Origin: an uncultured virus (IMG/VR IMGVR_UViG_2049941000_000086)
Taxonomy: Duplodnaviria > Heunggongvirae > Uroviricota > Caudoviricetes
Strand: one strand, 5' to 3'
DNA: 64,000 bases
IMG/VR virus record: IMGVR_UViG_2049941000_000086
Part shown: in pieces, positions 490 to 63,819 of the stretch
Numbering within the stretch: position 1 is the first letter of the stretch
How the letters are laid out: each line of letters begins with the position of its first letter
The notes under the pieces: generated by a model
Database searches by the model: none
Told to the model about the DNA's origin: nothing
The model's input: the letters and a program-made list of their open reading frames with translations, nothing else
Program-made: the position numbers and the translations under genes

Positions 490-900
490 TCACGCCGTGC
501 GAAGCAGCCCGCCGCCGCAAGACCTGAAGCCAATGGAACCGAACTCGGAACAATCCGGGTAAGTCAGGTTCTCCGTCCACGTCACCGCGTAACCTTCCCG
601 AATGTCATCCCTGTCCATGCCCCACTCTTCTTCGTGGTCGCTCACATACAGGTAAGACTCCATCTCCATGTCCTCACAGAAGGAACGAATCACCATGTAC
701 ACCAGAGCGCCGTTCTCGTCAAGGAGCCGCTTGGCAACTTCCTTCTGCCGCTCGTTCAGGTCGTACAGTCCACCGAAGGGAGGCTCGCTGACCATGACCT
801 TGTTGCTCCTGCGGAACGCTTCCCTCGCACGTCCGAAGACATCCATCATCTTCATCCGGCGCACAGCCTCAGCTTTCTTCATATCCAGAGAAATGTTCAT
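490..900 (-). CDS. hypothetical protein
   Basis: 136-aa ORF with GGAGG RBS. Confidence 0.75.
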   Translation of the reverse strand: MNISLDMKKAEAVRRMKMMDVFGRAREAFRRSNKVMVSEPPFGGLYDLNERQKEVAKRLLDENGALVYMVIRSFCEDMEMESYLYVSDHEEEWGMDRDDIREGYAVTWTENLTYPDCSEFGSIGFRSCGGGLLRTA

Positions 901-7935: not shown

Positions 7936-8208
7936 CGCACTTCTCCTCCGTACTCTCTTTTTTCTTGCGCGTGGACTTCTTCTTCGGCTTGACCTCCACC
8001 GGCTCCGGCACTTCCCGGATTTCGGCGATCTGCTTGCTGAGCTTCCGTACACGGTCTTCCCCGGTCAGCCAGTATTTCCCCAGCTCCCCGGTGATCTCTC
8101 TGGCGCTTCCGTCCCGAAAAACAAGAATCCTNNNNNNNNNNTTTCTAGCTCCCTTCTTTGGCTTTTTGGTGCCAACCTATCTTTTCCTTGCCCGATTCGC
8201 GCTTTCAT
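7916..8208 (-). CDS. hypothetical protein (interrupted by N gap)
   Basis: Hand translation ...ILVFRDGSAREITGELGKYWLTGEDRVRK...; start uncertain. Confidence 0.4.
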
Positions 8209-11200
8209 GTTGTGACTATAGTGTTGCTCGTATAGTACGTGGTGTTTACCGACGGGTCTCCGGTAAACGAACCTCCGGTGCCGGAGAACATATTGTAAGT
8301 TGCCAGAGTCGCCGCCGTTCCGTTTCCGCCGCTGGGAATCCTGTATTGCGTTGTGTAACTTCCGGTCTGAGCAGAAGACAGTTTGATCTGTGTGCAGTTT
8401 TGGAACATGGACATGTAGCAGTACGGTTCCAACTGTTCCGACGGGAGTACCGGAAGTTCTTCCAACGCCGTGCAGTCTGAATACATGGTAATACAACATC
8501 CTGGCGCAAGAGTTGTTGCGGGCATCGCGGCGGCCTTTTTCAGCGCTTCGCATCCGGAAAACATTGAGTTATAACAGTAAGTAGCAAGCGTGGTCGCCGG
8601 AAGTTCGGGAGGCTCCGTGATTCCGGACAATGCGAACTTCGCCATATAGCAGTCTTCGCTGAGCGTCATGGCCGTGAGTTCCGGTGCTTTCACCAGCGCC
8701 TCACAACTGCGGAACATATACCGGCAGCATTGCGCCGCCATCGCCGGGTGCCCTCCGTTTTGCACCGTTTCCCAGTCCAGCAGGGCTTCTATCGTCCCGT
8801 AGGCGGACACGCCGCTTCCGATGATGTGCCACCCGGCATTGTCTCTGTAGTCTGTCAGGACCGTGTTTCCGATCCCACGAAGGTAGAGATTGTTTCCGGC
8901 TCCGGAGGTAATGGAAATGCCGTTCCATTCCTGCCAGTTTTCTCCGTCGGTGGAGTACTCCATCGTCCCGTCCCATGTAGCAACCTGTCCGTCCGGGTAA
9001 ATACTGAATGGAGCGTTGGAAGAAAACCGCAGCCATACTCCTTCGGTGGGCTCCGGCTCCGGGGGCCATTCCGTCACCGTAGCCACGGGATAGTCATTTA
9101 CCGACACCGCAGATATTGTCATAGCCCCGTTGTACGCCAGCGGTCTTGTAAAGCCCTGGATCAGATGCCGCTCCACCGGGCTTCCCGGCTTGTCCGTCCG
9201 CACGATTTCCACAAGGGAGTTGAGGTCGATGTGCATCATTTGGATGCAGCTTATGCTCACCGCTTTCTGCAAGACGCTGCTTCGCTTCAGCCTCCATTCC
9301 GCCAGGTCGCGGCACTGCGTCGAGGTGGCGTAGCCGCTTGCGCTTTCGTACTTTGTCTTTCTCCCGATGAGATATACGTTGGTATCGCTGCGCGGGTCAT
9401 AGTTCGTCGCCCGTCCTCCGGGCTGCGAGTAATCGTCCAGCATTTCCCCCACAACGATATAGTCGTTGTAAACGTCTTCTTTCTTGACAGTGTAAGCCAT
9501 TCCAAGGAGTTGTGCTTCCTCCGGGGTAAAACGCCAGAGCACCGGCTTGTTGATATCCAGGATGTCATCCTGGCTTGGATCGACGCGCAGCCTGCCGGTG
9601 TTGTCGTAGCCCACCCATGCGTTCACCATTCCGGCCAGACCGATGATGATCTGTGCTTTCGTGCCTCCGTCTCCGTTCACCGTCAGCGTGTAGGGGCTGT
9701 CCGTCATGGAGGCTACCGTTCCGTCCGTCAGCTCCTGCGTTTTCCCGTTGTAATACTCCGTGTAAACGGGGGTCATATTGTCCAGGGGAAGTCCATTCCC
9801 CCGGTCCTCTGCCAAAAGCTCCGTGATGGGCTCAAAGATATTCGTGCCCACTGGAACTTCGTATGTGCCCTCCAGCTTCCCACCCAAAGTCCCGTCCAGC
9901 TCCGCCCATTTGTCCAGCAAGCGATAAGTCACGCTCTTTGTCTTCGGGTCTATTTTCTCCTGCGGGTTGTCGATAACGAATACCCCGGTTTGCCGGTAGT
10001 ATTCGCTCCCGTCCGAGAGGACAAGCCCTTCGTCCAGCGCAATCTCCTGTCCAAACCACACCTTGTTTACGGTGGTTTCAAAGGCCAAGTCCGCGTTGTC
10101 CAGCGTCACCGTGGCGCTGAGCCTCTGCCCGTTCTGAAGATTAGCAGTCACCGTACCGCTGGCGATAAAGGCGTGGCTTCGCTTGTTGCGCGGGTTGTTA
10201 TCAAGCGCGTAGGCAGTAGTTCCGTTGGGATTCAGGAAGCGCAGACGGCAGAGCTTTATAAAAGGAGTTCGGAGCTGCTTCAGATAGTCCTTTTGCCGCT
10301 CGATGGTGTTGAGATCACGCCCGACAAGGACATACAAAACGGCAGGATTGGAGTCGTAGTAGCCGCTTCCGGGGATTGCCGCCGTCAGAGAATAAATATA
10401 GGTCTGCNNNNNNNNNNNNNNNNNNNNNNNNNNNNNNNNNNNNNNNNNAGTGGTAAGTCCCGTATCGCTGTAGGTCTTTGCGTGTCCCTGATAGATGGTG
10501 ACCCCGTCCCGCTTCAGTGTGTATGTCACCGTCGTTCCGTAGTTTCTGAGTGTCCAATTAAGCACGACGTCGGTGGAAGTCTGGCTGGCTTCGATCAGGT
10601 CAGGCGTTTCGATCTGCGGGCGGACCGCCACGGTGATGCTGGTCCCAGTGCTGTCGTAATATCCGTTTGCTTTTGCGTACACCGTGTAAACGTAGTTGGT
10701 TCCGGGGTTCGTGCCGATATCCGTGTAGCTGGTCGCGCTGGTGCTTCCCACCTTGGTTCCGTCCCTGTAAACGTCATATCCGGTCGCTCCAGAAGCCGCA
10801 GCCCACGTCAGGCTGACGGTGCTTACCGTCTGCGTGTAATTCAGGTTCGTCACATTGGGAAGCTGGGGCTTGTTGGCTGTACTGATGCTTGCCGCGTCGC
10901 TGTCCCACCGTCCGCTTGCCTTTGCGGTGACGGTATAAAAGACGCTGACTCCGGCCCCGGCGCTGGAATCCACGTACTTTTCCGTGTTTACGCTGGCGAC
11001 GGTAGTCCCGTTTTTCTTGACAGTATAGCTGGAAGCTCCGGCCACCGCATTCCATTGTATCGTCGTGGATGTGCTTGTATAGCTCGCCCTCAGATTCGTC
11101 GGTGTGTCCAGTTTGCCTTGTGAGGTGTAGTTCACCACCGTCGGCTCGCTCTCCGCGTAGGATGCGGACCACGCCGCTATCTGCCTCGTATAAGCCTCGC

Positions 11201-12308
11201 CGTCGTCGATCCCAGTCTCCGTGTAGGGCGAGGAGGAGATCGTGCTCAGAAGATTCCCACTGCCGTCGTACACCTTGTATGCGCTGGCGTTGGTCACGGC
11301 GGTAAAGGCGATCTGCACTGTTCCCTCTGTCGGATAGGTGATTCCCGTGACCGTTGGGCTTGCAAGCTGGCCCTGGATGACGGTGATGCGAATATAGCCT
11401 TCACCCCGATGTCCTGCCGCCGCCGTTGTTCCGTCCGGCTCCGTGATGGTGCTGCCTTCCTGCCCGCTGATAGTAGAAGCGTCCGTCAGCCAATAGCTGC
11501 TCCCAAGCGCGTAGCCGCTTGGAACGCTTCCTGCCGTGGAGGATGTCAGTACAAAGCCGCTGCCGCCCCCTCCGGGATAGACGTACTCTACCACGTTCGG
11601 GGCTGTCCCCGTAGTCTGCGTCCCACCGGCCCCACCGCCGTACCAGCCTCCGCCTCCCATTCCCTGCTCGGTGAAGCTGCTGTTTTGCCAGTATCCACCG
11701 GCCCCGAAAATGCCGTTGCTGTACCAGTGATTTTGCAGGTTGTAGCCCGCGCCCGTCGCGCCTCCTCCGGTCTGCGTACCGCCCTGTCCGTAACGTCCGC
11801 TTCCACCGGCCAGTCCGGAAGCCCCTCCGCCGCCTCCGGCGTTCAGGTCTCCGCCGACGCCGCTCCACGTATTCGTGTAATATCCGGATTGCCCGCCTCC
11901 TCCTGCCGTCAGGACGCGGTGATACAGGCTGTTTTGCCCGATCCTTATATCGCTTCCCCCGCCGCTGCCGAAGTAGTAATCTCTGGTACTGTAGCTGTAA
12001 TGTCTGGCTTGCCCTCCGTTGTAGCCCACGCCTCCCGGAGTAAGGAAAACGGTTGCTTTGGCGCTCAGCGTCAGTGTACCCGCCGCATATCCTCCAGAGC
12101 CGTCCGCAGTTCCGGCGCTCCATCCGCCGAGACGTTCTTCAAAGTAACCGGCGGCGCTGCCCCATGCTTCCAGCCGATATATCCCCTTCGGCAGCGCCAT
12201 CTGTAAGCTTTGGCCCCTCCGTCCGTCGGAATTGCGGTAAGTGTAGTTCAGGATATCGCCGGTCAGCAGCTTGTCCGGAATACCGTCCCAAAGATTGTAT
12301 GTTGCCAT
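8205..12308 (-). CDS. large multidomain tail protein (Gly-rich domain, FN3 repeats, tail hub-like domain, LRR/BspA-like C-terminus)
   Basis: GGGG-rich N-terminus; W.AV.GA..Y.V FN3 repeats; ELPATTLA..CY.SMF..C repeats; GGAGG RBS. Confidence 0.85.
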   Translation of the reverse strand: MATYNLWDGIPDKLLTGDILNYTYRNSDGRRGQSLQMALPKGIYRLEAWGSAAGYFEERLGGWSAGTADGSGGYAAGTLTLSAKATVFLTPGGVGYNGGQARHYSYSTRDYYFGSGGGSDIRIGQNSLYHRVLTAGGGGQSGYYTNTWSGVGGDLNAGGGGGASGLAGGSGRYGQGGTQTGGGATGAGYNLQNHWYSNGIFGAGGYWQNSSFTEQGMGGGGWYGGGAGGTQTTGTAPNVVEYVYPGGGGSGFVLTSSTAGSVPSGYALGSSYWLTDASTISGQEGSTITEPDGTTAAAGHRGEGYIRITVIQGQLASPTVTGITYPTEGTVQIAFTAVTNASAYKVYDGSGNLLSTISSSPYTETGIDDGEAYTRQIAAWSASYAESEPTVVNYTSQGKLDTPTNLRASYTSTSTTIQWNAVAGASSYTVKKNGTTVASVNTEKYVDSSAGAGVSVFYTVTAKASGRWDSDAASISTANKPQLPNVTNLNYTQTVSTVSLTWAAASGATGYDVYRDGTKVGSTSATSYTDIGTNPGTNYVYTVYAKANGYYDSTGTSITVAVRPQIETPDLIEASQTSTDVVLNWTLRNYGTTVTYTLKRDGVTIYQGHAKTYSDTGLTTXXXXXXXXXXXXXXQTYIYSLTAAIPGSGYYDSNPAVLYVLVGRDLNTIERQKDYLKQLRTPFIKLCRLRFLNPNGTTAYALDNNPRNKRSHAFIASGTVTANLQNGQRLSATVTLDNADLAFETTVNKVWFGQEIALDEGLVLSDGSEYYRQTGVFVIDNPQEKIDPKTKSVTYRLLDKWAELDGTLGGKLEGTYEVPVGTNIFEPITELLAEDRGNGLPLDNMTPVYTEYYNGKTQELTDGTVASMTDSPYTLTVNGDGGTKAQIIIGLAGMVNAWVGYDNTGRLRVDPSQDDILDINKPVLWRFTPEEAQLLGMAYTVKKEDVYNDYIVVGEMLDDYSQPGGRATNYDPRSDTNVYLIGRKTKYESASGYATSTQCRDLAEWRLKRSSVLQKAVSISCIQMMHIDLNSLVEIVRTDKPGSPVERHLIQGFTRPLAYNGAMTISAVSVNDYPVATVTEWPPEPEPTEGVWLRFSSNAPFSIYPDGQVATWDGTMEYSTDGENWQEWNGISITSGAGNNLYLRGIGNTVLTDYRDNAGWHIIGSGVSAYGTIEALLDWETVQNGGHPAMAAQCCRYMFRSCEALVKAPELTAMTLSEDCYMAKFALSGITEPPELPATTLATYCYNSMFSGCEALKKAAAMPATTLAPGCCITMYSDCTALEELPVLPSEQLEPYCYMSMFQNCTQIKLSSAQTGSYTTQYRIPSGGNGTAATLATYNMFSGTGGSFTGDPSVNTTYYTSNTIVTT

Positions 12309-12328
12309 TCGTTCCACCTCCCCGTATT

Positions 12329-13800
12329 TTAAGAGGGGATACCCCAAATCCCGGTCTCTGCCGCGTCTTCGAGCGCGATCCACGGAACCGACACCGTCTG
12401 CGCAAGAGACTCAGTTTTTTCGTTGGTCGCAGTCGTCACAGCTCCGTTGAAGCGGACGCGCATCACGTCTCCCTTGCTGCTCTTGAGGAACAACGGCTCC
12501 TGCGTGACGCTGAGCGCCGTCAGCGCGTTTCTGATCGTCAGGCTGTCTGTATACCTTCCGTTCGTCACCGTCCCCACAAGGGCCTTCAGCACTCCGCTGC
12601 GGTAGTTCTGCGGTGCAGGCTGCACCGTTGGGTTCGCAGTGAAGTTTTGCAGTACGTTGGGGGCGTTGTTGTTGGAGATGCTTCCCGGTTCCATGTTGTA
12701 TTTGAAGTGGAATTGCGTACTGACCGTAAAACTCCCGTCCCCGTTTTGGCTTGTGGTCAGCAGCGTCCAGCGGTAAAAGACGGGGCTTATGGCGGTGCTC
12801 TGAACCGGGCTTCCGATGATGGAACCGGCGCTGTTTGTCGCAGCTACGAGATAGTCGTAGGGGCCTTGTCCGCTGGCGCAGCCGTAGTCCGTAATGCTTC
12901 TGACGCCTACGCCCACATCCGCGACTTTCACCAGAACGCCGCTTCCATCCTGTTCTCTGAATATAGCCCATCTGCTTTGACCGCTGGCCGTACTTAGTCC
13001 GGTCCAGTCGATGATGACGCCGTTCACGTCCTTCTGCACCCCGACCGTCACGGTCCCCGTGGTAGGCGTCACGCTGTAGCTGACGGTAAATGTCTGCCAG
13101 CCCGTGCTGAGAAGAACGCCGCTGCTGGTCTGTCCGGTGGCCCGGAAGCTGTAATTGAATCCGCTGCGGAAGCCACGGTAGGTGCAGGTATATACCGCCG
13201 CGCCGTAGATGTTGCCGCTGTCGTAGATNNNNNNNNNNNNNNNNNNNNNNNNNNNNNNNNNNNNNNNNNNNNNNNNNNNNTGCTTCCCTGCGCGATCTCG
13301 TACCGCACCCAGTCCAGGGTGTCCCCCTGCGCCTGTGAATAGGTAAGCGTGAAAGTATAGGCGCTGCTCGTCACCGTGGCGGGGACGGAAGCCAGATTGA
13401 AGCTGGGGTTGCTCCGCGTGATGAAAACACTTGCGCTGCTCTGCGTCACGCTGGCCTCCTCCCCGTTGTCGTCGTAATACTGGGTAATCACCATCTTGTA
13501 TTCGTTCCCGTTGGTGACCCCAGCGCCGCTCAGGGCGGAGGCGCTGATGGTATAGCTGTAGTATTGCAGTTCTCCCAGTGCGTCTGCTCCGTAGAACGGT
13601 GTTGAAAACGTGACCTTCCCCGTCGTGTACTTCTGCGTACTGGCCTCGTTATTCAGGTATATGGTTATCTTCATGCCCGTCATGACCGGGTAATCTCCGT
13701 TCACCTGCCACGAGACCTTCATGGGCAGCGTCGCGTCGATGACGCCAAGCCCGATACCACTTTTCAAATCGGGGATTACGTTGGTGGCTTGAAATAGCAT
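12329..13800 (-). CDS. tail protein (one gene; frame break only at the N gap 13229-13280)
   Basis: After the gap IYDSGNIYGAAVYTCTY..SVTPTTGTVTV runs in frame into the 12329 ORF; lies directly after the tape measure gene. Confidence 0.75.
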
Positions 13801-36809: not shown

Positions 36810-37781
36810 TTATTTTCGGCGTTTTGGTGCCAGTTTTTGCGCTATCCTTCGGTTTTCATAGGAGAAGTCTTCAAACCGTGGAACGCTTCTAAACAAGATT
36901 TTGTTGTTGCACCACTGCTGGAGCATTCGTATTTCATATGGAGCGTGTGGCTTGTCGTACACCATGACGAATGGGTCGAACCGAAGCTCCCGCAATGTCT
37001 CAACGCGGTATAAGTTTTCTTCCATGGTGCTATTGTAATTCGTGAGGACATATACCGTTCCATACTGTCCATGTGGCTTGTGCTTCGCCCTTTTCGCGTA
37101 TTCCGCAAATTTCTCTTTCAGGTCGTCTTTTGGGTTATCCCAAGCGAAATGGATTTCCTTTATCCTCATTTGGTTTATATCGTCTATGTCATCACCGTTG
37201 AGCAAACGAATATCCAAACCTTGGGTGAAATCCAGCCTTGCCCCGGTCTCACGATACTGCGCCATCAGTTCCCGCTTATCCCGGCAGGCTGTGATGTTTG
37301 GATCAAGGATTTTGATTTCCTTTTGCCCGTTCCAGAAGTCCGAGACGTCGGCCACTTTGGTGCTGACGCATCCCTCTTTCGCGGCCACATGGCAGAATGG
37401 GCATTGCCTGCTACAGCCCCTGGAGGTCATTGAAACGGCATACTTGAACTCAGGGTAAAGGCTGTAATCCGGGAAGCACCTCTCTATTTCAGGCGGAAGG
37501 TTTTCGTTCTTGCTCTTATCGAAGTGTTCCTTCCCGTCTTCGCCAAGGCTGATGCAGTAGCCGGTTCCACCCTTGATTACCAGGTCCGCGTTCATCGGCT
37601 CCGGCACATCCGGTGAGTAGGTGTCGGAAAAGACCTTGCTCATGTAAACGATATCATAATGCTCAAGGTCGCTCCACCACCACTCTACCGTATCTCCTTT
37701 GGCTTTGTGGTACGCGCTGATCCGCATGAGCGCCAGGTTCGGAAAATTGTGACCATCGACGTCAATCAGACCGATTCTCAT
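36810..37781 (-). CDS. radical SAM protein
   Basis: SRGCSRQCPFC CxxxCxxC motif; PNLALM N-terminal motif. Confidence 0.85.
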   Translation of the reverse strand: MRIGLIDVDGHNFPNLALMRISAYHKAKGDTVEWWWSDLEHYDIVYMSKVFSDTYSPDVPEPMNADLVIKGGTGYCISLGEDGKEHFDKSKNENLPPEIERCFPDYSLYPEFKYAVSMTSRGCSRQCPFCHVAAKEGCVSTKVADVSDFWNGQKEIKILDPNITACRDKRELMAQYRETGARLDFTQGLDIRLLNGDDIDDINQMRIKEIHFAWDNPKDDLKEKFAEYAKRAKHKPHGQYGTVYVLTNYNSTMEENLYRVETLRELRFDPFVMVYDKPHAPYEIRMLQQWCNNKILFRSVPRFEDFSYENRRIAQKLAPKRRK

Positions 37782-38383
37782 GACTCCTCCTTATATATGA
37801 ATTTATATCCTCCGACCTGTGCCAGTTTTCCGTTGGCGCATTCCGTTGCTTTGACATAATTTACACCCACGGCAGCAGCAGCTTCTTTTGCTGAGTAATA
37901 TGTACCCACAACAATGCCGTTTTTAAGCACCACGGTCTTCTTTCTCCCGCACATCTTTGGATTCTGGTAGTCATGTTTGGAAGCAATTTTCGCATAATTC
38001 ATCTTCTTGCTTCTCTCTTTGAAGTCCGTGTGAGCTACCGCCCTAGCTATCCGAGTTCCGTAGGTGTTTTGCTCCAAATTAGTAGCCCATTCCAAATTCT
38101 CTGCACGGTTATCTGTTTTGACCTCGTTTTTATGGTTTACAGTTGGTTTGCCGAGCGGATTGTCCAAAAAAGACAATGCCACAATCCGATGTATTGAGAC
38201 TAGTTTGGGCTTTTCTTCCCCGTTGCAAAGCGCAACTCTATGATATCCAGCAACGGAATCCTTGGGCTTCAACACTTTTTGGGTATAGTTGCTATATATT
38301 CTTCCCTTTGAACTCACCCAGTACTGATTTGAGTATGCCGGAAGATTTACCCTAGTCCAGATTTCTTCGATGGTACTATTCAT
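37778..38383 (-). CDS. NUMOD4-HNH homing endonuclease
   Basis: YWVSSKGRI, IHRIVA..F, VNHKNEVKTDNRAENLEW; AT-rich. Confidence 0.88.
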   Translation of the reverse strand: MNSTIEEIWTRVNLPAYSNQYWVSSKGRIYSNYTQKVLKPKDSVAGYHRVALCNGEEKPKLVSIHRIVALSFLDNPLGKPTVNHKNEVKTDNRAENLEWATNLEQNTYGTRIARAVAHTDFKERSKKMNYAKIASKHDYQNPKMCGRKKTVVLKNGIVVGTYYSAKEAAAAVGVNYVKATECANGKLAQVGGYKFIYKEES

Positions 38384-38388
38384 TGTAC

Positions 38389-39283
38389 TCACAACTTTCC
38401 TATTGCTTGATAGAAGTCGCCTTCTATTCCTTTTTCCTCGTTTCCAAAGTNNNNNNNNNNTAATAACGGCAATGCAAAAGGATTCCACTTCCGAGCTCCA
38501 CCTTACGCTTTCTGGCCCATTGATGGCGGCAAAGGCAAGACCGAATCCCTCTATGCCGCTGAACAAACTCCCCATTGTCGGTCTCTTTTCGTACTGTGCC
38601 GATATCCTCCGCATCAGCCAGCACCAGAACCCGCTTCGCTCGTTGGCGAATCCCACGGCGATACTGTTCCCCAACGCTTTATACTTCGGGGTATCCGCAT
38701 CCTTGTGGGTCTTCCCGTCTTCATCGACCCACTCCCCCAGATCAACCCACGAATCTGGGAAGCCCTGAAGCCTACAGCACTCTTTCGGGGTGAGTCTGCG
38801 CACGATACTATCCGACATATTGTTTTCCTCCCGTTCCATGACCGCTTGATGGTCGTGCATACAATCCAACGCATTTGCTATCGGAGACATGGACACTTGG
38901 TTGAGCTGACCGTTTCCTATGGAAACTGCTCTCTCCTGTTTATCATCCATGCTCTGTATCACCACCTTTGGAGTATGACCTTGGTTCGCTATGGGATGGC
39001 AGGGGTCTCCCCACTTCGGATGCGAGTAGTTTCCGGGGCTTGTGACCTGGGTAGTGTCAAACGGCAAAGCGTCAACAATCATCGGCACATATCCCCCTCC
39101 CATTCCCATGCTTGCAGGAAGCGTCGTACAATCTTCCGTCTCCTTTTCCGTCGCGTGGTTTTGATTGCTTTCCAGTATGATAGGCATATTCCCACCGCCG
39201 GTTCCGTATCTGGCGATTATCGGCATTGCGTACTCATCTTCTCTCCACCAATAACGCCTGACTTGGTTATAGAGTTTCTTCAT
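38389..39283 (-). CDS. C5 DNA methyltransferase part 3 (TRD-like repeats, motifs IX, X, I, II; permuted)
   Basis: RRLTPKECCRLQGFP, YKALGNS, GSLFSGIEG, WSSEV; end inferred across the gap. Confidence 0.8.
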
Positions 39284-39458: not shown

Positions 39459-40878
39459 TGTCGCTTCCCTTTTGTTCCGTCTGAGCCACATAGGTTTGCT
39501 GATGCGTACCCGGCTCGGATGAAAGGCTCCCGGCAACGTCTTCCAAGTCTCGGACTTCTTCTCGCTGATTCTGGGTAAATGCCGATACCCTGACGACGTT
39601 GTTCAGGTTGAGGCTGACTCCTTGATTCTTTGCCTGAAGCGTTCCGTTTATCTCCGGGTTTTCCGTTCCGTTCCGGCAATCTACGGCGGCGACCGCATGT
39701 TGCTCTATCGTGTTGAGCGTATACATGACGTCGGACTCGGCGTATCCGTTTCCGAAGTGGGACTTTCTCGTTCCGTTCCCCTCGATTGCAAAGGTCTTTA
39801 CTTGTTCTTTGTTCAGGATCATCATCCCGCCCTGATTGCAGGCAGGACTCCCGCCGTTCAAGTCAAGCGTTCTTGAGGTGTCAGCCTTGTATATCCCGCT
39901 GTGCGGGTTCTTTGATTTCATGGCGTTGGAGTCGTAGGCGGATATGCCGTAGGCTACCGCATGTGGCGTACCGTGGCTGTCTGACAGGATAGTCGGAGAC
40001 TTGTCCGTCTGATAGTTTGCTCCGCCTTTTCCTCCCTGCTGATCGATTCCGTAGGCGAATACGCTCTGATTGGTGAAGGTACTCAGCGCACCGGTGTGTT
40101 CGTCCTGGATCAGGATTCCTTTTCCTCCTCCGGGTTTTCCTGCCCGCTCCTGGAAACTGAGCGCCCGGACTGTCTCTCCAGCGCTTCTTTTAGTTCCGTC
40201 GGCAGTTCCTTCCCCCTTCTCTCGGCACGATTCAGGATTCCGAGGCAGGCTTTCTCCGACAGCCGATACTTTTCGTCCGGGTTCGTCTCCAGCACCTGCG
40301 ATAGTTTCGTCGGGTTCTCCGCCCTCGGTTTCTCCCCGCAGTTGAGGGTCAAATAGAATCTCCGGCGCGGTGAGTCCGTTGAAATCACATACGAGGGCAA
40401 TGCGCTTTCTGCGCTGCGGAGTTCCGAAGAACTGGGCGTCCACGGTACGATAGGCGAGACTCCAGCTTCCCATCTCCGAGTAGTAGCATCCGTACTTTGG
40501 TCATCCCCCGTCAGGCACAGGAACTGTAGGGGCCGTTGGGTCTGCGACGCGGATGATTTCCGTGAGGACCGTTTGGAAGTCCCTGCCGGAATTGCTGGAA
40601 TAGGCTCCGCAAACGTTTTCCCAGACGAAATAGCGGCATCGAACATCGACACCTGTTCTCCCCATTGCTCTGTCACGTTCCCGCATCTCCTTTGCTATTC
40701 TGATCTGTTCCATAAACAACCCGCTCCGGGTCGTTTCTTCATCGTCCAGTTCTTCGTGTTTCATCCCTTTGCGAAGTCCCGCAACGCTAAGATCTTGGCA
40801 GGGGGACCCCCCGGTCAGCACGTCAACCGGCTCTATGTCCCACCCGTGGATATTTTTTACGTCGCCCAGATGTTTCAT
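39451..40878 (-). CDS. C5 DNA methyltransferase part 1 (motifs III-VIII plus TRD-like repeats) with in-frame TGA at 40501-40503
   Basis: HLGDV, GGSPCQDLS, WENV, PQRRKR in one frame across the TGA. Confidence 0.8.
40110..40676 (-). CDS. overprinted ORF resembling the M.EcoHK31I beta subunit
   Basis: LSQVLE..KYRLSEKACLGILNRAERRGKELPTELKEALE in an alternative frame inside the methyltransferase gene. Confidence 0.65.
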   Translation of the reverse strand: MTEQWGEQVSMFDAAISSGKTFAEPIPAIPAGTSKRSSRKSSASQTQRPLQFLCLTGDDQSTDATTRRWEAGVSPIVPWTPSSSELRSAESALPSYVISTDSPRRRFYLTLNCGEKPRAENPTKLSQVLETNPDEKYRLSEKACLGILNRAERRGKELPTELKEALERQSGRSVSRSGQENPEEEKES

Positions 40879-41294
40879 TTCCCGGTGCTCCCCATCCGTC
40901 CGTCTCCGCGCTCCGTTTCGTCCAGTTCCGCCACGACTTCCAGCTCCACCTTCGGGATCGGCAGGATAACGATTTGGCTGATTTTGTCCCCGGCCTTGAA
41001 CATGTAGTCCCGTCCGGTGTCCTCGCTGTATATTTTCACGATGATGGAGCCGGTATATCCTGCGTCCAACAGGCCCGTACTTGTCAGGCTGTGCTTCACG
41101 TTGAGGCCGCTCTTGCTCACCAGCAGGCCGCAGTACCCTTCCGGCACTGCCATGTGTACGCCGGTGTCGTGGACGGCATGTCCCCCGGCGGGAACGACAA
41201 AATCTTCCTTTGCACACAGATCCCACCCCGCGTCGTCGTCGTGGCCGTGCTTCGGCAAAAACGCGCCTGGGTCAAGTTTCACTTTGACGATCAT
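40875..41294 (-). CDS. dut: dUTPase
   Basis: AGWDL, SKSGL, GLLDAGYTG, GDKISQ, RGDGRMGSTG. Confidence 0.95.
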   Translation of the reverse strand: MIVKVKLDPGAFLPKHGHDDDAGWDLCAKEDFVVPAGGHAVHDTGVHMAVPEGYCGLLVSKSGLNVKHSLTSTGLLDAGYTGSIIVKIYSEDTGRDYMFKAGDKISQIVILPIPKVELEVVAELDETERGDGRMGSTGK

Positions 41295-45069: not shown

Positions 45070-46134
45070 TCAGGAAAAGAAGCTGCCTAGGACGTCGTCT
45101 TCGTCGTCGGGCTTAATGGTTACCGCTTCCTTCACCGGCTCAAAGGCCACGTCCTGCGCGGTCGGCTCTGCGGATTCCTTCTTGGGTCGTCCGCGTCCCT
45201 TCTTCACCTGCTGGTCAGCCTCGACCGAGGCTTCGCCGTCCACCGTTCCTTCCGTGTCCGAAGGGTTAATCTGGACGCTCTGCTCCCTAATCTCCCCGGT
45301 TCCGGGGTCCACGTTCATCACGTCGAAGGAAGCGAGGGCTTCCGCGTCCTTGGCCTCCTCGTCCTCGCGCTCAAGGACCGTGTCGATGTTGGTGATGGCG
45401 CGGAGCTGGACGTAGCCGCTGTTCAGCAGACGGCGAATGACCGTCTTTTTCATCATGGTCTCGGTGGCCGAATACCACGGGCTTTTCTTCTTAAGCCGCT
45501 CCGCCTCCTCCGGGCTGAGGTCGCCGCTGATAAGCTGGCGGTATTTGGAACGGTCGAAAGTCTTGGAGTACTGCTCGGCGTGATCGAGAATTGCGCCGAG
45601 GCTCATGTACTCAGAGCGGAAGAAGCCGTCCTTTTTCTCAACGTAGGCGTAGTAGCCGATGATGGGATGCTGCTCCGCTTCCTCGTCCGTGGCGTAGATG
45701 GAGAAGTCAAACTCCGGGCGCTTCGTCCGGCGGTTGCGTCCGACGTACTCTCCCTCACGAATTTCCACGCAGTCCATGTCGGCCACGTCGCCGCCCGCCA
45801 TCGCCATTGCGATGAGACCCTTGTATGAAATCTGGAAGCTGGCAGTCCCGGCGTAAGGAACGACATAATAGCCCATGCCGAGCATGAGACCCATGCCCTC
45901 GCCCCGGAGAGCCGCCGCCACGATGGAGGCGGGATTGCAGTTCTGGAGTTCCGTGCTGGAAACCACAAGGGAAATCAGGCTCCCGGTCAGACGGGCGGCG
46001 CTTTTGGCGTCCGGCGTGGCTTTCTTAATCATGCCCTGGAGGGCGTTGCCCTGAATGGCAACGGAGAACTTTTCCTGCTTGTTTACGATAGCGCCATTTC
46101 CGCTCGTGGTAAGCGCGTTGTTAGGTCTAGCCAA
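45070..46134 (-). CDS. recT: RecT-family recombinase
   Basis: CNPASI, YVVPY..FQISYKGL, MMKKTVIRRLL. Confidence 0.9.
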   Translation of the reverse strand: MARPNNALTTSGNGAIVNKQEKFSVAIQGNALQGMIKKATPDAKSAARLTGSLISLVVSSTELQNCNPASIVAAALRGEGMGLMLGMGYYVVPYAGTASFQISYKGLIAMAMAGGDVADMDCVEIREGEYVGRNRRTKRPEFDFSIYATDEEAEQHPIIGYYAYVEKKDGFFRSEYMSLGAILDHAEQYSKTFDRSKYRQLISGDLSPEEAERLKKKSPWYSATETMMKKTVIRRLLNSGYVQLRAITNIDTVLEREDEEAKDAEALASFDVMNVDPGTGEIREQSVQINPSDTEGTVDGEASVEADQQVKKGRGRPKKESAEPTAQDVAFEPVKEAVTIKPDDEDDVLGSFFS

Positions 46135-48885: not shown

Positions 48886-49533
48886 TCAAAACCGTATCGG
48901 TGCTCCGGGGCGCTTCCCCGTCTGTACCGATTCCCAAAATTCTTCTTCCTGCTGAAGTAGCCACGCGAGATCAGCTTCATGCTCGCTGCGTTCGATAACG
49001 AATGCGTCCTTCAGGGTGATATCCCCGTTCATGTGCCACAGGGCCGGTTGCAGTACCACAAAGTCCCATCCGGTCGCAAGCAGTTGGTGGATGCACTGGC
49101 AGTAATACGCTTGAGGTATTTGACCGTCCCACTCTCTCCATGCCTCCCGGCTGTTTGGGGCAGAGGTCTTAATCTCCAAAATTCCGTTCCGACCGTCAGA
49201 AGATGTAATCTGCCCGTCAAGCGTCGCAAACAGCCAGGGCCGTTCCTCCTGATACAGAATGTCGTAGGGGTGGTACTCAATCCCGTATTCCGGGTGGAGG
49301 GCGGCGTAGAAGCCTCTCACAGCGGCCTCCATCAAATGCCCTCGTCCAACGTAATCCTTGCCGCTGATATCCTTCCGTTCCCTGCGCCCGGTGTGGATTT
49401 CCCAAAGTTCGTTTTTGGTCATCCACTTGGACATCCCGCAGACCGCCGCCGCCTCTGAAGCGCCCAACCCCCGCTCTGCTCGTCCCGCCAGCCAGGATGC
49501 CCGGTCAGGGTAACTAATTCGTTGGAGTGCCAT
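48886..49533 (-). CDS. YqaJ-like exonuclease
   Basis: GLGASEAAAVCG, ATLDG, LEIKT, YYCQCIHQL. Confidence 0.92.
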   Translation of the reverse strand: MALQRISYPDRASWLAGRAERGLGASEAAAVCGMSKWMTKNELWEIHTGRRERKDISGKDYVGRGHLMEAAVRGFYAALHPEYGIEYHPYDILYQEERPWLFATLDGQITSSDGRNGILEIKTSAPNSREAWREWDGQIPQAYYCQCIHQLLATGWDFVVLQPALWHMNGDITLKDAFVIERSEHEADLAWLLQQEEEFWESVQTGKRPGAPIRF

Positions 49534-50177
49534 TACGCCTGCATCACGTCAACGAGGTGGTAGCGCCCGTAGCCGCTGGTCCGCCCGCTGCCGATACCGA
49601 GACCGAATCCGGCGAGGTTGATGAAGCTGCAAAGTTGGTCGAGGCTGTAAACGTGGTCGGTGTAGTCCATCTTGAAGACGGCTTTCCAGCCGGAGAAGTG
49701 GCTGAGGCGCGTAGTGATGGGGGCACCGCGCTTCGGGGACATGAGGGTTTCCTCCAGCGTCCACTTGGCGAATGTGATGGGCACCAGGTTCCGCATCGCC
49801 ACGATGTTCACGGCGTTATCGACCTTCGTGGCGTACTTGTCGATCTCATTGCGGACGACGGCCTGACCGAAGGACTTCTTCAAACCGAAAGCGGAAATGC
49901 AGGGGGCGTTGTCTTTCAGCAGGGACTTGAGCATGGCTTCGTCACAGTCCTTGTAGGTGTCGGTGGTGGGCAGATCGTCCCGCCAGTGAATCGCGGTGAT
50001 GATGTCCTCCCAGGGGTTCGGGACTTCCCGGACCTTCTTGCGGTCGTCAGCCATCAGAGCGCGGCGATTCCGGGCGTTCATCTTGTTCAGGACGAGATCG
50101 CCGTCACCTTCGATGGTGATGATTGCGTGCTTGATCTTGATGGGTTCGATTTCGAGAATGTTGGCGTCCTTTTTCAT
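49533..50177 (-). CDS. solo RAMP/Cas7-like protein (Vipr-like effector candidate)
   Basis: ITIEGDGDLVL first strand, PCISAFGLKKS (cf. PxIPxSSLKG), C-terminal Gly loop AGFGLGIGSGRTSGYGRY. Confidence 0.75.
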   Translation of the reverse strand: MKKDANILEIEPIKIKHAIITIEGDGDLVLNKMNARNRRALMADDRKKVREVPNPWEDIITAIHWRDDLPTTDTYKDCDEAMLKSLLKDNAPCISAFGLKKSFGQAVVRNEIDKYATKVDNAVNIVAMRNLVPITFAKWTLEETLMSPKRGAPITTRLSHFSGWKAVFKMDYTDHVYSLDQLCSFINLAGFGLGIGSGRTSGYGRYHLVDVMQA

Positions 50178-50210
50178 GGTTTGCCGTTCTCCCTTTCTGA
50201 TTTAGAATTG

Positions 50211-50953
50211 CGCTCATGGGCGCGAGAATGACCTGTAATGTTGTGTCCTGTGCTATAAGGAACTGTTGTTGCTAGTAGTATTCCTTTGTATCCAGCAGTG
50301 TGTATATGGCGTTACAGGCCATTCTCCCGCCCGTGGGCGGTGTCCCCGGTCATCGTCGAAAGCTCGATGTTTTGTCATGCTGCGTTCTGTCCTCTGCCGA
50401 AGTGACATAGGCAAAAGTCAACTGTCTGCTGCGATTCCGTATCGTGCTTGGAGAGCATCAAGCCCTCGACGATGACCGGGGCGGTGATGTTTGTTCCGGG
50501 TTATGCTGTATTGTTCTGGTCTATCGCGTAATGACTTGTGCTGTGCTTTACTTTATTTTTCTGTACGGTCTGTGGTCGCTCCAGAGAGCGCCGGGAAAGG
50601 TTCTACCTTCTGTTATAGTGTGCTATCGTATAGTCTTGTCTTATAACCTGTTGTGAATTGACAAGTCCGCTGTTGCCATGATTGATACTGTTGAAAGTGA
50701 ATTTGTGATTTGAAGGGAGAGCCCTTCCCGGTGTCCTCTGTTTTGTGCTGTAATGCAGGATAGTAAAGCGTTCTCGGCTGTTACGTTCTGATTTGTACCG
50801 AAGTGCGATGCGCTTGCACGGCGAGTGCGCGGAACGCTCGTTTTGATTTATAGTGTGTTGTTATGTCTCACGCTGTTATTTCGTGAGTAAAGGTGTTCAA
50901 TCCGTTTTTGCAGGATTATTTGTTGGGAGCCGAACGCTCCGCGCACTCGCCGT
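50211..50953 (-). ncRNA. guide-RNA-like array: four ~27-30-bp stems and six tracts of NN+ACA-like pentamers
   Basis: Inverted repeats 50211-40/50310-39, 50344-72/50453-81, 50584-610/50712-38, 50818-44/50927-53; YGT-NN periodicity on the + strand; strand inferred from the flanking genes. Confidence 0.8.
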
Positions 50954-50959
50954 CAGAGT

Positions 50960-51466
50960 TCACGCCGTCTTGGATAGTTCCTCCACCGCCTCAATCAGCC
51001 GGGTCAGTTCCGCCCGGTCTTTGAGGATGCTGTATTTTCGCTGAAAAGCCAGCAGTTCACTCAGGGCTGATTGGAGAAGCCGCTGATATTCGTCGTCGTT
51101 GCGGACGGTGAATTCGATGGACCTGTACCCACGTTCCTCCTCGTTGCTTTCGGAATCAACGCCGCCGGACAGGTGGAATATCCTGACGGGTTCTGATACT
51201 TCGTCGTCGCTTTCTGCCGTTCGGATAATCAGGTGGTGGACGATGGTTCTTGCTTCCTGCTTGCGCCACTTTTCGGCGGCGGCATCGTTGTCCCATGTGA
51301 AGCACTTGTGAAGCTCCGTCGCTTCGTCCCGCGCTTTCTCTACGATTTGCTCCGGCGTTGCAGTGTCACCGATGCTTTTGATTTCCCGATAGACGCCCTG
51401 TGCGTTCGCTCCGTGGAACAGGCACTCAAAGCGCGGGTCCCAGCTCGCTATCAGTTCTCCCCTCAC
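50960..51466 (-). CDS. hypothetical protein upstream of the array (accessory candidate)
   Basis: TPEQIVEKARD..LHKCFTWDNDAAAEKWRKQEAR motif; GGAGG RBS. Confidence 0.75.
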   Translation of the reverse strand: MRGELIASWDPRFECLFHGANAQGVYREIKSIGDTATPEQIVEKARDEATELHKCFTWDNDAAAEKWRKQEARTIVHHLIIRTAESDDEVSEPVRIFHLSGGVDSESNEEERGYRSIEFTVRNDDEYQRLLQSALSELLAFQRKYSILKDRAELTRLIEAVEELSKTA

Positions 51467-59884: not shown

Positions 59885-59959
59885 TGGCAGGGATGGAAGG
59901 ATTCGGACCTGCGCGTAACTGGTTCAAGGCCAGATGCCTTTCCGCTTGGCTACATCCCC
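59885..59959 (-). tRNA. tRNA-Gln(UUG), atypical (C33, T-loop UCCGAAU)
   Basis: Cloverleaf GGGGATG..CATCCCT-G-CCA; anticodon loop CCTTGAA. Confidence 0.75.
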
Positions 59960-60260: not shown

Positions 60261-60334
60261 TGGAGCGAGTGACCGGATTTGAACCGGCGCTCCCAGCTTG
60301 GAGGGCTGGTGTTCTACCTCTGAACTACACCCGC
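60261..60334 (-). tRNA. tRNA-Gly(UCC) with C33
   Basis: GCGGGTG..CACTCGC-T-CCA; CCAGC CCTCCAA GCTGG; GGTTCAAATCC. Confidence 0.9.
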
Positions 60335-61457: not shown

Positions 61458-61610
61458 TGGTGCCGAGGGGAGGATTTGAACCCCCACGGTTGAACGACAC
61501 TTCATCCGGTAGCAGATATGGATTGTACTTCTCCACAGCTTGTCAGTGCCAGCACTTCAACTTAGTCTCCGTGTCGTCTGCTCGCTTTTTCCGCATTAAG
61601 CTACCTCGGC
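61458..61610 (-). ncRNA. tRNA-like RNA whose anticodon arm is replaced by a long insertion; CCA end
   Basis: GCCGAGG/CCTCGGC-A-CCA, D and T arms, GACGACAC/GTGTCGTT stem enclosing ~60 nt. Confidence 0.7.
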
Positions 61611-62998: not shown

Positions 62999-63376
62999 CT
63001 ACTTCTGATAGGTTCCGAGGACGTTCCGCTCCGCCCGATCCTCCGCCCTTTTGTTCATCCACATGAGGGCTTCCTCGATGTGCGTCAGGGCGCAGGCGTT
63101 TTCCCGGCAGGCAAACTCTCCGGCCTGAAACGCTTTCAGCCGGTCACGGACGATTTCCAAAAGGTCTCCGTCCAGTACACCAGTCCGCGCATCAGGGTCA
63201 GTCCTCGCGCCCTTCTGAAACCTGATTTGTTCGCTGGTCACACTACCGCCGCCAGTTTCGGTGCTGCGCCACATCAACACCGTATAGTCGTGGTACGCTC
63301 CGCCGGGGCCGATCTCCCCTTCACGGAAGACTTCGTTCAGATTGTTTCTCTTCTGAATCGTCGAAAGTTTTTCCAT
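62999..63376 (-). CDS. tad1: Thoeris anti-defence 1 signal-sponge protein
   Basis: [58 protein letters not shown], as recalled for Clostridium Tad1. Confidence 0.88.
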
Positions 63377-63378
63377 CG

Positions 63379-63819
63379 TTATTCTCCCTCCTTTTTTACG
63401 GTAATCTTCGGCTCCGTCCCCCAAATGTGAACGGGGTCTGCGTCAACCGTCCAGCTCTCCCGTTTGTCCTCCGGAAGCTGGTGCCAGAAGAAGTTGCGGA
63501 TGACCGAGTACATATCAAACGCCACCTGAACATCCTCTGTCTTACGGAAATGCTCAAGGTTGCCACCGGATGCGGCTCGCATCGCCAGTTCAAGCATCTC
63601 CTTGCAGGCATCGCGTCTGAGTATGCGTCTGTCGAACTCCGGGTCGTCCGGCTTGTATTCATAGTTCAGCCAAGCCAGGTCTTCCGCCATGTCCCACGTC
63701 TGGCCTATGCACATCCTAGCCCACTTCTCACATACATTCTGTAACAGCCGGAGCTGCCGCTCGTTGAGCGTGATGGTGTACTTCTGCTCCGGAGGCGTCT
63801 CCGTTTTCTTTCTCGCCAT
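63379..63819 (-). CDS. hypothetical protein
   Basis: 146-aa ORF, GGGAG RBS. Confidence 0.75.

Follow-up and report, generated by a model that had tools for sequence, protein, structure and literature searches.

What does the non-coding gap of 780 bp between two minus-strand genes of an uncultured Caudoviricetes virus (IMG/VR record IMGVR_UViG_2049941000_000086) encode, and against what would it be directed? In the window, which is the whole stretch of 64,000 nucleotides that was analyzed, this gap (50178..50959, minus strand) holds an array of four long-stem hairpins and six pentamer tracts, and is flanked by the genes of a 168-aa protein (50960-51466) and of a 214-aa protein (49533-50177). 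The locus is probably an RNA-guided system of VIPR type (Viral Interference Programmable Repeat), belonging to a temperate phage whose hosts are gut or rumen Clostridia, with one of the tracts, guide 5, aimed at genes of the AAA_24 family. The assignment to VIPR is made because a Vipr-homologous RAMP protein is found beside an array of pentamer tracts. VIPR was described in 2026 preprints (PMC13142463). According to these, Vipr is a small RAMP protein that polymerizes on vrRNAs of GGY/NN pentamers, and the NN bases alone pair with double-stranded DNA, with every third base of the target, usually the codon wobble position, being skipped (PMC13142463).

Guide 5 (50739..50818, minus strand) lies between hairpins A and B of the array. 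When read on the minus strand it consists of 16 consecutive in-phase units of 5 nt, each with two variable bases (NN) and a semi-conserved triplet. The NN code is, from 5' to 3', TG GC TC CT GT AA GA TA GC GA CT CT CT TT GC AA, and the triplets are, in order, CAA GCA GCA TCG ACA TCA ACG ACA CGA ACG TTA ATC GCA ACA ACA ACA. An earlier note on this DNA had listed these dinucleotides, and its list is identical letter for letter to the minus-strand parse, with the 80-nt range being exact. The period of five is far beyond chance: for the window's region taken together with the regions of nine relatives, the autocorrelation of ACA at lags of 5, 10, 15, 20, 25, and 30 is 79, 66, 68, 65, 51, and 49, while every other lag gives 0-20. 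For 545 called units from nine loci, the triplet on the strand in the sense of the 214-aa gene (vipr) has a composition of A.67, C.63, and A.82, and its positions have entropies of 0.98-1.51 bits, versus 1.98 and 1.99 bits for the NN positions 4 and 5. Given that the caller of the pentamer units selects for ACA, the result is unbiased for positions 4-5 only. The tracts of the window have 8-17 units each, where VIPR tracts are described with 9-16. A search of the window for the dinucleotide list at 3-nt spacing gave no matches with up to 3 mismatches (best 17/32 in any orientation), and was rejected because the units of the guide recur every 5 nt.

In a two-of-three code, the letters of guide 5 very likely spell the segment A-[AP]-L-V-K-E-W-A-D-L-L-L-F-A-N of AAA_24 genes, which would encode Sak4-type ATPases. 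The earlier note had pointed to a motif of this kind, and the motif is real: genes fetched by protein similarity, without the use of the guide, contain SPLVKEWADMVLFAN (L030 and L031) and APLVKEWADMVLFAN (L032 and L038). A search with PF13479 of 61 genomes, from the order of a VIPR-carrying metagenome-assembled genome (MAG), gave two AAA_24 genes. The AAA_24 gene of L028, found by Pfam alone (204 bits), contains APIVKEWADIVLFLN; guide 5 reaches a best score of 23/32 on it, and the maximum for 100 shuffled guides is 22. Forty homologues were then collected by protein similarity, again without the guide. In all 13 close homologues (at least 44% identity), the best site for guide 5 is the AAA_24 motif, in frame, with scores of 22-27/32. 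These independent matches, in L028 and in the 13 homologues, support the reading of guide 5 proposed in the earlier note.

A seed of 11 of the 16 units of guide 5 (22 bases) was matched in 31 viral contigs, and all matches fall at the segment [TV]A[AP]LVKEWADL[LV]LFANY, with scores of 28/32 in 25 contigs, 27 in three, and 26 in three. The 47-bp AAA_24 site in its LVKEWADLLLFAN-coding version scores 28/32. The target family is assigned from Pfam AAA_24 (PF13479): in the five records that the Pfam scan covered, the gene at the matched site was in every case AAA_24, with E-values from 2e-53 to 2e-67 and 174-222 bits against a cut-off of 27 bits, and the matched site is inside the domain match. 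The motif is also present in the other 26 seed matches, within open frames that are 247-397 aa long. Scaled from the 11 scattered matches obtained with a seed of 16 bases from another guide, the number of chance matches to a 22-base seed is estimated at about 0.003.

The match depends on the skip and on the register. In five whole target records, skipping one base gave 28/32, whereas skips of 0, 2, and 3 gave 18-20, the other four pentamer registers (1-4) gave 19-22/32, and 300 shuffles of the unit order of guide 5 gave a mean of 20.5 and a maximum of 24. For any one site, a score of at least 28/32 has a probability of 1.7e-13. All 45 sites are matched in frame. Over 32 distinct target sites, the major base has frequencies of.85 and.97 at the first and second codon positions, which are read, and of.54 at the third, which is skipped. 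Ordinary homology is unable to produce such a match, because the bases are spaced by 5 nt in the guide and by 3 nt in the target.

Nonetheless, several observations weigh against the assignment of guide 5 to these genes. The five records of the skip test were picked by the skip-1 seed, which guaranteed 22 of the 28 matches, and for this reason the independent support is that of L028 and the 13 homologues. At unit 8 the guide has TA, in contrast to the TG of an invariant Trp codon in all 32 distinct targets; unit 3 is one base off in all of them; and unit 1 (TG), whose T closes the preceding stem, matches no target. The exact search pattern proposed in the earlier note would return nothing, because unit 3 differs from all the targets seen. 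No perfect 32/32 target was found in the searches of viral contigs, metagenomes, and genomes. Exact 10-unit halves of guide 5 gave no matches in viral contigs, and with up to 3 mismatches the guide was found in none of 5 VIPR-host genomes and in none of the 401 genomes searched from a single host family. A central 10-unit seed gave in metagenomes three matches at chance level (21-25/32), in DUF7033, LacI-family, and HisKA genes, which were discarded. The remaining guides add to these points, given that for guides 1-4 and 6 no target was found in the five target records or in the window, seeds of 9 exact units from guides 3 and 4 had no matches, and the 11 matches of the 16-base seed mentioned above, which is the 8-unit seed of guide 6, are scattered and chance-like. 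Among 86 tracts from 17 relatives compared with the AAA_24 targets, none reached 18/20.

For guide 6 (CG TA GC AG TA AC CT AA AA AG), 19 of the 20 read bases are found at about 597-626 (minus strand) of L133, a 98-kb viral contig, at the 3' end of an open reading frame (ORF; ..RYARYTLNK*). This site is unsupported as a target, and the other 10 seed matches look random.

These mismatches can also be explained if guide 5 is a real guide that is inactive on the sampled AAA_24 genes, either because its target is an unsampled ...ASLVKEYADLLLFAN variant or because the guide is decaying. This explanation, although the strongest of the alternatives, appears doubtful. Its case is that the best match stops at 28/32, with units 8 (TA versus TG) and 3 mismatched at every distinct site, that the mid-tract triplets (CGA, TTA, ATC) have degenerated from the consensus, and that most of the top natural VIPR targets match perfectly (PMC13142463). 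The best match corresponds to 87.5% of the read bases, or to 28/30 if unit 1 is excluded for its overlap with the stem, and this is close to the average read-base match of 89.2% of natural SUSP1 targets (10.64898/2026.10.15.759431). Furthermore, the Trp is invariant at 32/32 distinct sites, which implies that a Tyr variant may be rare.

The phages that carry the matched sites are unrelated to that of the window: only a 398-aa integrase-like ORF matches, and weakly. Their G+C content is.47-.64 and none carries vipr. Among the 121 genomes of the family of G007, a VIPR-carrying Oscillospiraceae MAG, one has the site at up to one seed mismatch. The AAA_24 genes of the VIPR-bearing relatives L014 (record G002, the same phage as L005) and L029 belong to another subfamily, without LVKEWAD..LFAN, and are not matched by guide 5 (19/32 and 18/32). 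That of L029 is in genome G007, about 2 kb downstream of vipr in L015. As for the phage of the window, the earlier note had stated that it encodes RecT and YqaJ instead of AAA_24, and this agrees with what was found: a RecT annealing protein is encoded at 45070..46134 (minus strand; PF03837, E 1.2e-28) and a YqaJ-type exonuclease at 48886..49533 (minus strand; PF09588, E 3.9e-24), and AAA_24 was not found among the 69 ORFs scanned. No self-target site for guide 5 was found in the window. The YqaJ gene is beside vipr in only 2 of 19 relatives; it is part of the phage's own recombination module, outside the conserved VIPR unit.

The 214-aa protein encoded next to the array (49533..50177, minus strand) is, from profile comparison and from the predicted structure, a RAMP protein with a Cas7-like fold that is homologous to SUSP1 Vipr. 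It has 2305 unnamed homologues without a Pfam domain, which form 744 clusters at 50% identity, and a C-terminal glycine-rich G-loop, GFGLGIGSGRTSGYGRY. The structure model (pLDDT 78.8) has Csm3/Cas7 as the best Foldseek matches (E 3.6e-6), and VIA gave Z of 10.3 with Cmr4 (root-mean-square deviation 3.3, 150 aligned) and of 10.0 with Csm3. The family profile of 57 sequences (A2) matched PDB entry 36pp_D, 'SUSP1 Vipr protein', with E 1.1e-13 (profile 57-217, chain residues 23-188), as the sole match under E 0.4 among solved structures, whereas a shallow profile of 9 sequences gave only E 0.48 with the same protein. Direct alignment of the 214-aa family with SUSP1 Vipr by hhalign gave a probability of 98.1% (E 7.6e-14). 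In SUSP1 Vipr, D177 and W178 read G1 and G2 of the repeat and R179 contacts Y3 (10.64898/2026.04.26.720927). The G-loop of the window's protein has Ser-Gly at the places of D177 and W178, and the Arg is kept: R199, nearly invariant in the family, aligns with R179.

Between the two flanking genes, the gap contains four inverted repeats with arms of 23-29 nt that are 79-91% complementary and loops of 73-101 nt. In the direction of the minus strand, hairpin A (50818..50953; arms 50931-50953 and 50818-50840, 91% complementary) holds guide 6 in its 90-nt loop, with in-phase units at about 50841-50886, and is followed by guide 5. Hairpin B (50582..50740; arms 50712-50740 and 50582-50610) holds guide 4 in its 101-nt loop. 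Guide 3 (50482..50581; 17 in-phase units at 50485-50569) links it to hairpin C (50344..50481; arms 50456-50481 and 50344-50369; 86-nt loop with guide 2), and hairpin D comes last (50211..50339; arms 50312-50339 and 50211-50238; 73-nt loop with guide 1); all these elements are assigned to the minus strand. On its 3' side, each tract has a hairpin arm after it. The loop-proximal part of the stem is kept across loci, with ..GAGGGCTTGT in the 5' arm and ACAAG-YY-CTTC in the 3' arm, and the start of the loop is able to pair with the 5' arm as an alternative small hairpin. Scans of the window with Rfam at the gathering threshold found no family in the array and only three tRNAs elsewhere, and an E-value scan of the array region gave one meaningless microRNA row (E 0.19). 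In a phage GenBank collection the array region had no DNA match, the single match of 42 nt being elsewhere in the window.

The same arrangement is found in related loci. All nine viral relatives have 2-4 hairpins with arms of 24-50 nt directly upstream of the vipr homologue, with A/C-rich loops and linkers of period 5 that have no nucleotide similarity to the array of the window. Pentamer tracts are at the corresponding place in 9 of 10 genome relatives, which are MAGs labeled Oscillospiraceae, Ruminococcus, Lachnospiraceae, and others. The 168-aa gene (50960..51466, minus strand; phrog_15946, without a Pfam family), directly upstream of the array, has a homologue at the same place and in the same orientation in 18 of 19 related loci and is a candidate accessory (vap-like) gene; no solved relative was found by sequence, and no fold match at E up to 0.001. 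The exception is L024, where the match to vipr covers residues 72-210 only, and neither tracts nor the 168-aa gene are present in the 2.5 kb upstream; this may be a decayed or rearranged locus. In L023 (labeled Gastranaerophilales), two hairpin-plus-tract units were noted (1113-1245 and 1267-1391), one of which, as a complete unit, has the orientation opposite to vipr; TATAAT is present in the 5' arm of each. From this layout, hairpin units may be independently transcribed modules.

With regard to the transcribed strand, the base pairing of the stems makes it likely that the guide RNAs come from the minus, vipr-sense strand, on which the triplet is ACA. Among 26 hairpins, the stem pairs that are not Watson-Crick are G.U on the vipr-sense strand in 61 cases versus 16 on the other, although some of these hairpins are near-duplicates (L008, L009), so that the counts are not all independent. 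Nine further hairpins gave 11 versus 6 in favor of the same strand, and the 5' arm keeps a GG that faces a variable YY of the 3' arm. The fold z-score of the array is also better on the minus strand, at -16.4 versus -9.6 on the plus strand (20 shuffles each). Public RNA runs contained only 7-8% of the sampled words, in the form of unstranded contigs.

The same system, with the same target, could instead have guides transcribed from the plus strand, antisense to vipr, as UGU/NN units. This would give UGY triplets that share G2 and Y3 with GGY, the third plus-strand position being a pyrimidine in 83% of the units, and R179 of SUSP1 Vipr, the contact to Y3 (10.64898/2026.04.26.720927), aligns with the nearly invariant R199. 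WGT/NN and TGH/NN are among the non-canonical VIPR repeats reported (10.64898/2026.10.21.760802), and with a plus-strand guide the mismatch of unit 8 to the Trp codon would become a U.G wobble. A promoter-like plus-strand site at 50181-50208 (TTGCCG, 16 nt, TAGAAT; 9/12) points into the array from the side of vipr, and the same strand has two hairpins with T-runs that resemble terminators; the counts of such promoter-like and terminator-like elements are at shuffle level. Set against this are the G.U pairs (61:16 and 11:6) with GG opposite variable YY, the better fold of the minus strand, and the inverted hairpin unit of L023, in which the wobble pairs follow the ACA strand of the unit itself. 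In addition, the arrays always read ACA in the sense of vipr and lie between two genes of one direction, and in SUSP1 the arrays are co-oriented with vipr, with 17/17 matches to the GGYNN pattern on the vipr strand. Plus-strand transcription is thus unlikely, and the AAA_24 result is independent of this choice, because the pattern in a double-stranded target is the same either way.

That the A/C-rich hairpins act as a sponge for protein, as the leader of an mRNA, or as an origin of replication, with a resemblance to AAA_24 by chance, is in line with the other five guides having no target but is very improbable, given the per-site probability of the match and its dependence on skip and register, the convergence of independently found targets on one in-frame site, the 31 seed matches within one gene family versus about 0.003 expected by the estimate above, and the Vipr homologue alongside. 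On the identity of this neighboring protein, an Hfq/Crc-type sponge, a site for a TRAP-like ring protein, a Rho site, a MazF decoy, a replication origin, a retron, and a template of a diversity-generating retroelement were likewise set aside.

The VIPR-type reading of the locus can be compared with what is known of type II VIPR, found in Escherichia phage SUSP1 and in a Pseudomonas fulva prophage (PMC13142463; 10.64898/2026.04.26.720927; 10.64898/2026.10.15.759431). As in these, a phage encodes a small RAMP protein, the tracts (of 8-17 pentamers here) combine a conserved triplet with hypervariable NN, the arrays are co-oriented with vipr, and the minimal locus is vipr plus one gene, here a candidate accessory gene. 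The one-base skip falls on codon third positions, and what is targeted is a conserved motif in the coding sequence of a competing mobile element. There are also differences from SUSP1. The triplet here is ACA (UGU on the other strand) and not GGY, which counts against the assignment, although the discovery paper allows for 'a related consensus' in some types and names 'staggered arrays' (PMC13142463). The tracts are inside and between hairpins of 23-29 bp with mutually different stems, no shared invariant 3' pseudoknot tail, of the kind that follows each tract in the SUSP1 clade, was identified in the array, and the candidate accessory gene encodes an apparently unrelated 168-aa protein without a fold match. 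The hosts, gut and rumen Clostridia, differ from those of both SUSP1 and the P. fulva prophage.

Also comparable are the period-5 arrays with GAC, CAC, WGT, or TGH next to NN that were found beside Vipr-like folds through the entropy periodicity of a language model (21 clusters; 10.64898/2026.10.21.760802). The plus-strand TGT of the window fits both WGT and TGH, and the passages of that preprint that were consulted give neither natural targets nor a hairpin-enclosed layout for these arrays. The ACA/UGU clade may already be classified among the published VIPR types. The closest solved folds are those of Csm3 and Cmr4, of the Cas7 filaments of class 1 CRISPR systems, which share the G-rich loop and the periodic interruption of the guide-target duplex. 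Unlike in those systems, there is here no CRISPR array, there are no cas genes and no identical repeats, and the guide period is 5 nt with 2 bases read, versus 6 nt with 5.

A more specific proposal is that these loci form a distinct VIPR lineage of gut-Clostridia phages, which jointly has an ACA-reading protein, a hairpin-interspersed precursor, and one broad AAA_24 guide. As a whole this combination is tentative, and somewhat less probable than its opposite. In it, guides would be supplied by the loops of the long, G.U-rich stems as well as by the intervening linkers, with RNase III perhaps releasing them, and the near-invariance of the read positions would give guide 5 a broad range of otherwise unrelated AAA_24 phages (G+C of 47-64%) and not a single competitor.

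For the locus as a VIPR-type system, the following mechanism is proposed. The module has the order 168-aa candidate accessory gene, guide array, and 214-aa Vipr-like RAMP protein, and its three parts would be transcribed together from the minus strand. The long stems would act as handles, or as RNase III sites, that free the loop and linker tracts of about 60-120 nt. By analogy with SUSP1, each Vipr protomer would bind one conserved triplet (ACA on the gene-sense strand) and present the NN bases for pairing with double-stranded DNA, with every third target base skipped. The Vipr-coated tract, a filament, would then bind and silence the AAA_24 genes of competing phages; these would be other, unrelated phages and prophages, while the phage of the window, with its RecT and YqaJ, would be spared. 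On the SUSP1 model, transcriptional silencing of the AAA_24 gene in competitors is the most likely role of guide 5.

Some other features of the window were also observed. An ORF of 141 aa at 62999-63424 (minus strand), outside the integrase-bounded phage region and near tRNAs, has an Acb2/Tad1 hairpin domain (PF24729, E 4.5e-7) and, judged by this domain, may encode an anti-CBASS or anti-Thoeris nucleotide sponge. The tRNA matches are at 61461-61610, 60264-60334, and 59888-59959 (all minus strand); the first has 150 nt versus a model of 71 positions, which suggests an intron or an insertion. A signal for C-5 cytosine DNA methylase is split across two ORFs, 37778-39283 and 40501-41226 (both minus strand), and the larger methylase ORF also has NUMOD4 and HNH_3 domains, so that the methylase gene looks interrupted by, or fused to, a homing-endonuclease module. 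In the tail region, a protein of 1392 aa (8205-12383, minus strand) with an ALK/LTK glycine-rich domain (PF12810, E 3e-28) adjoins a tape-measure-like ORF of 1626 aa.

Experiments on VIPR have so far dealt with two clades from phages of Proteobacteria that have GGY repeats. In the locus described here, the one-base-skip code picks, from sequence alone, a natural target for a divergent, non-GGY array in a different host group, with a control of skip length and register that mirrors the one used in the VIPR discovery paper. This supports the skip code as a general property of the Vipr family and not of one clade. The locus also suggests that a changed G-loop can read a different triplet, and this bears on the engineering of orthogonal VIPR scaffolds. 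For the phages themselves, the locus would be a concrete case of phage-against-phage interference, in which the gene under attack is that of a recombination/replication ATPase for which the attacker itself has no use.

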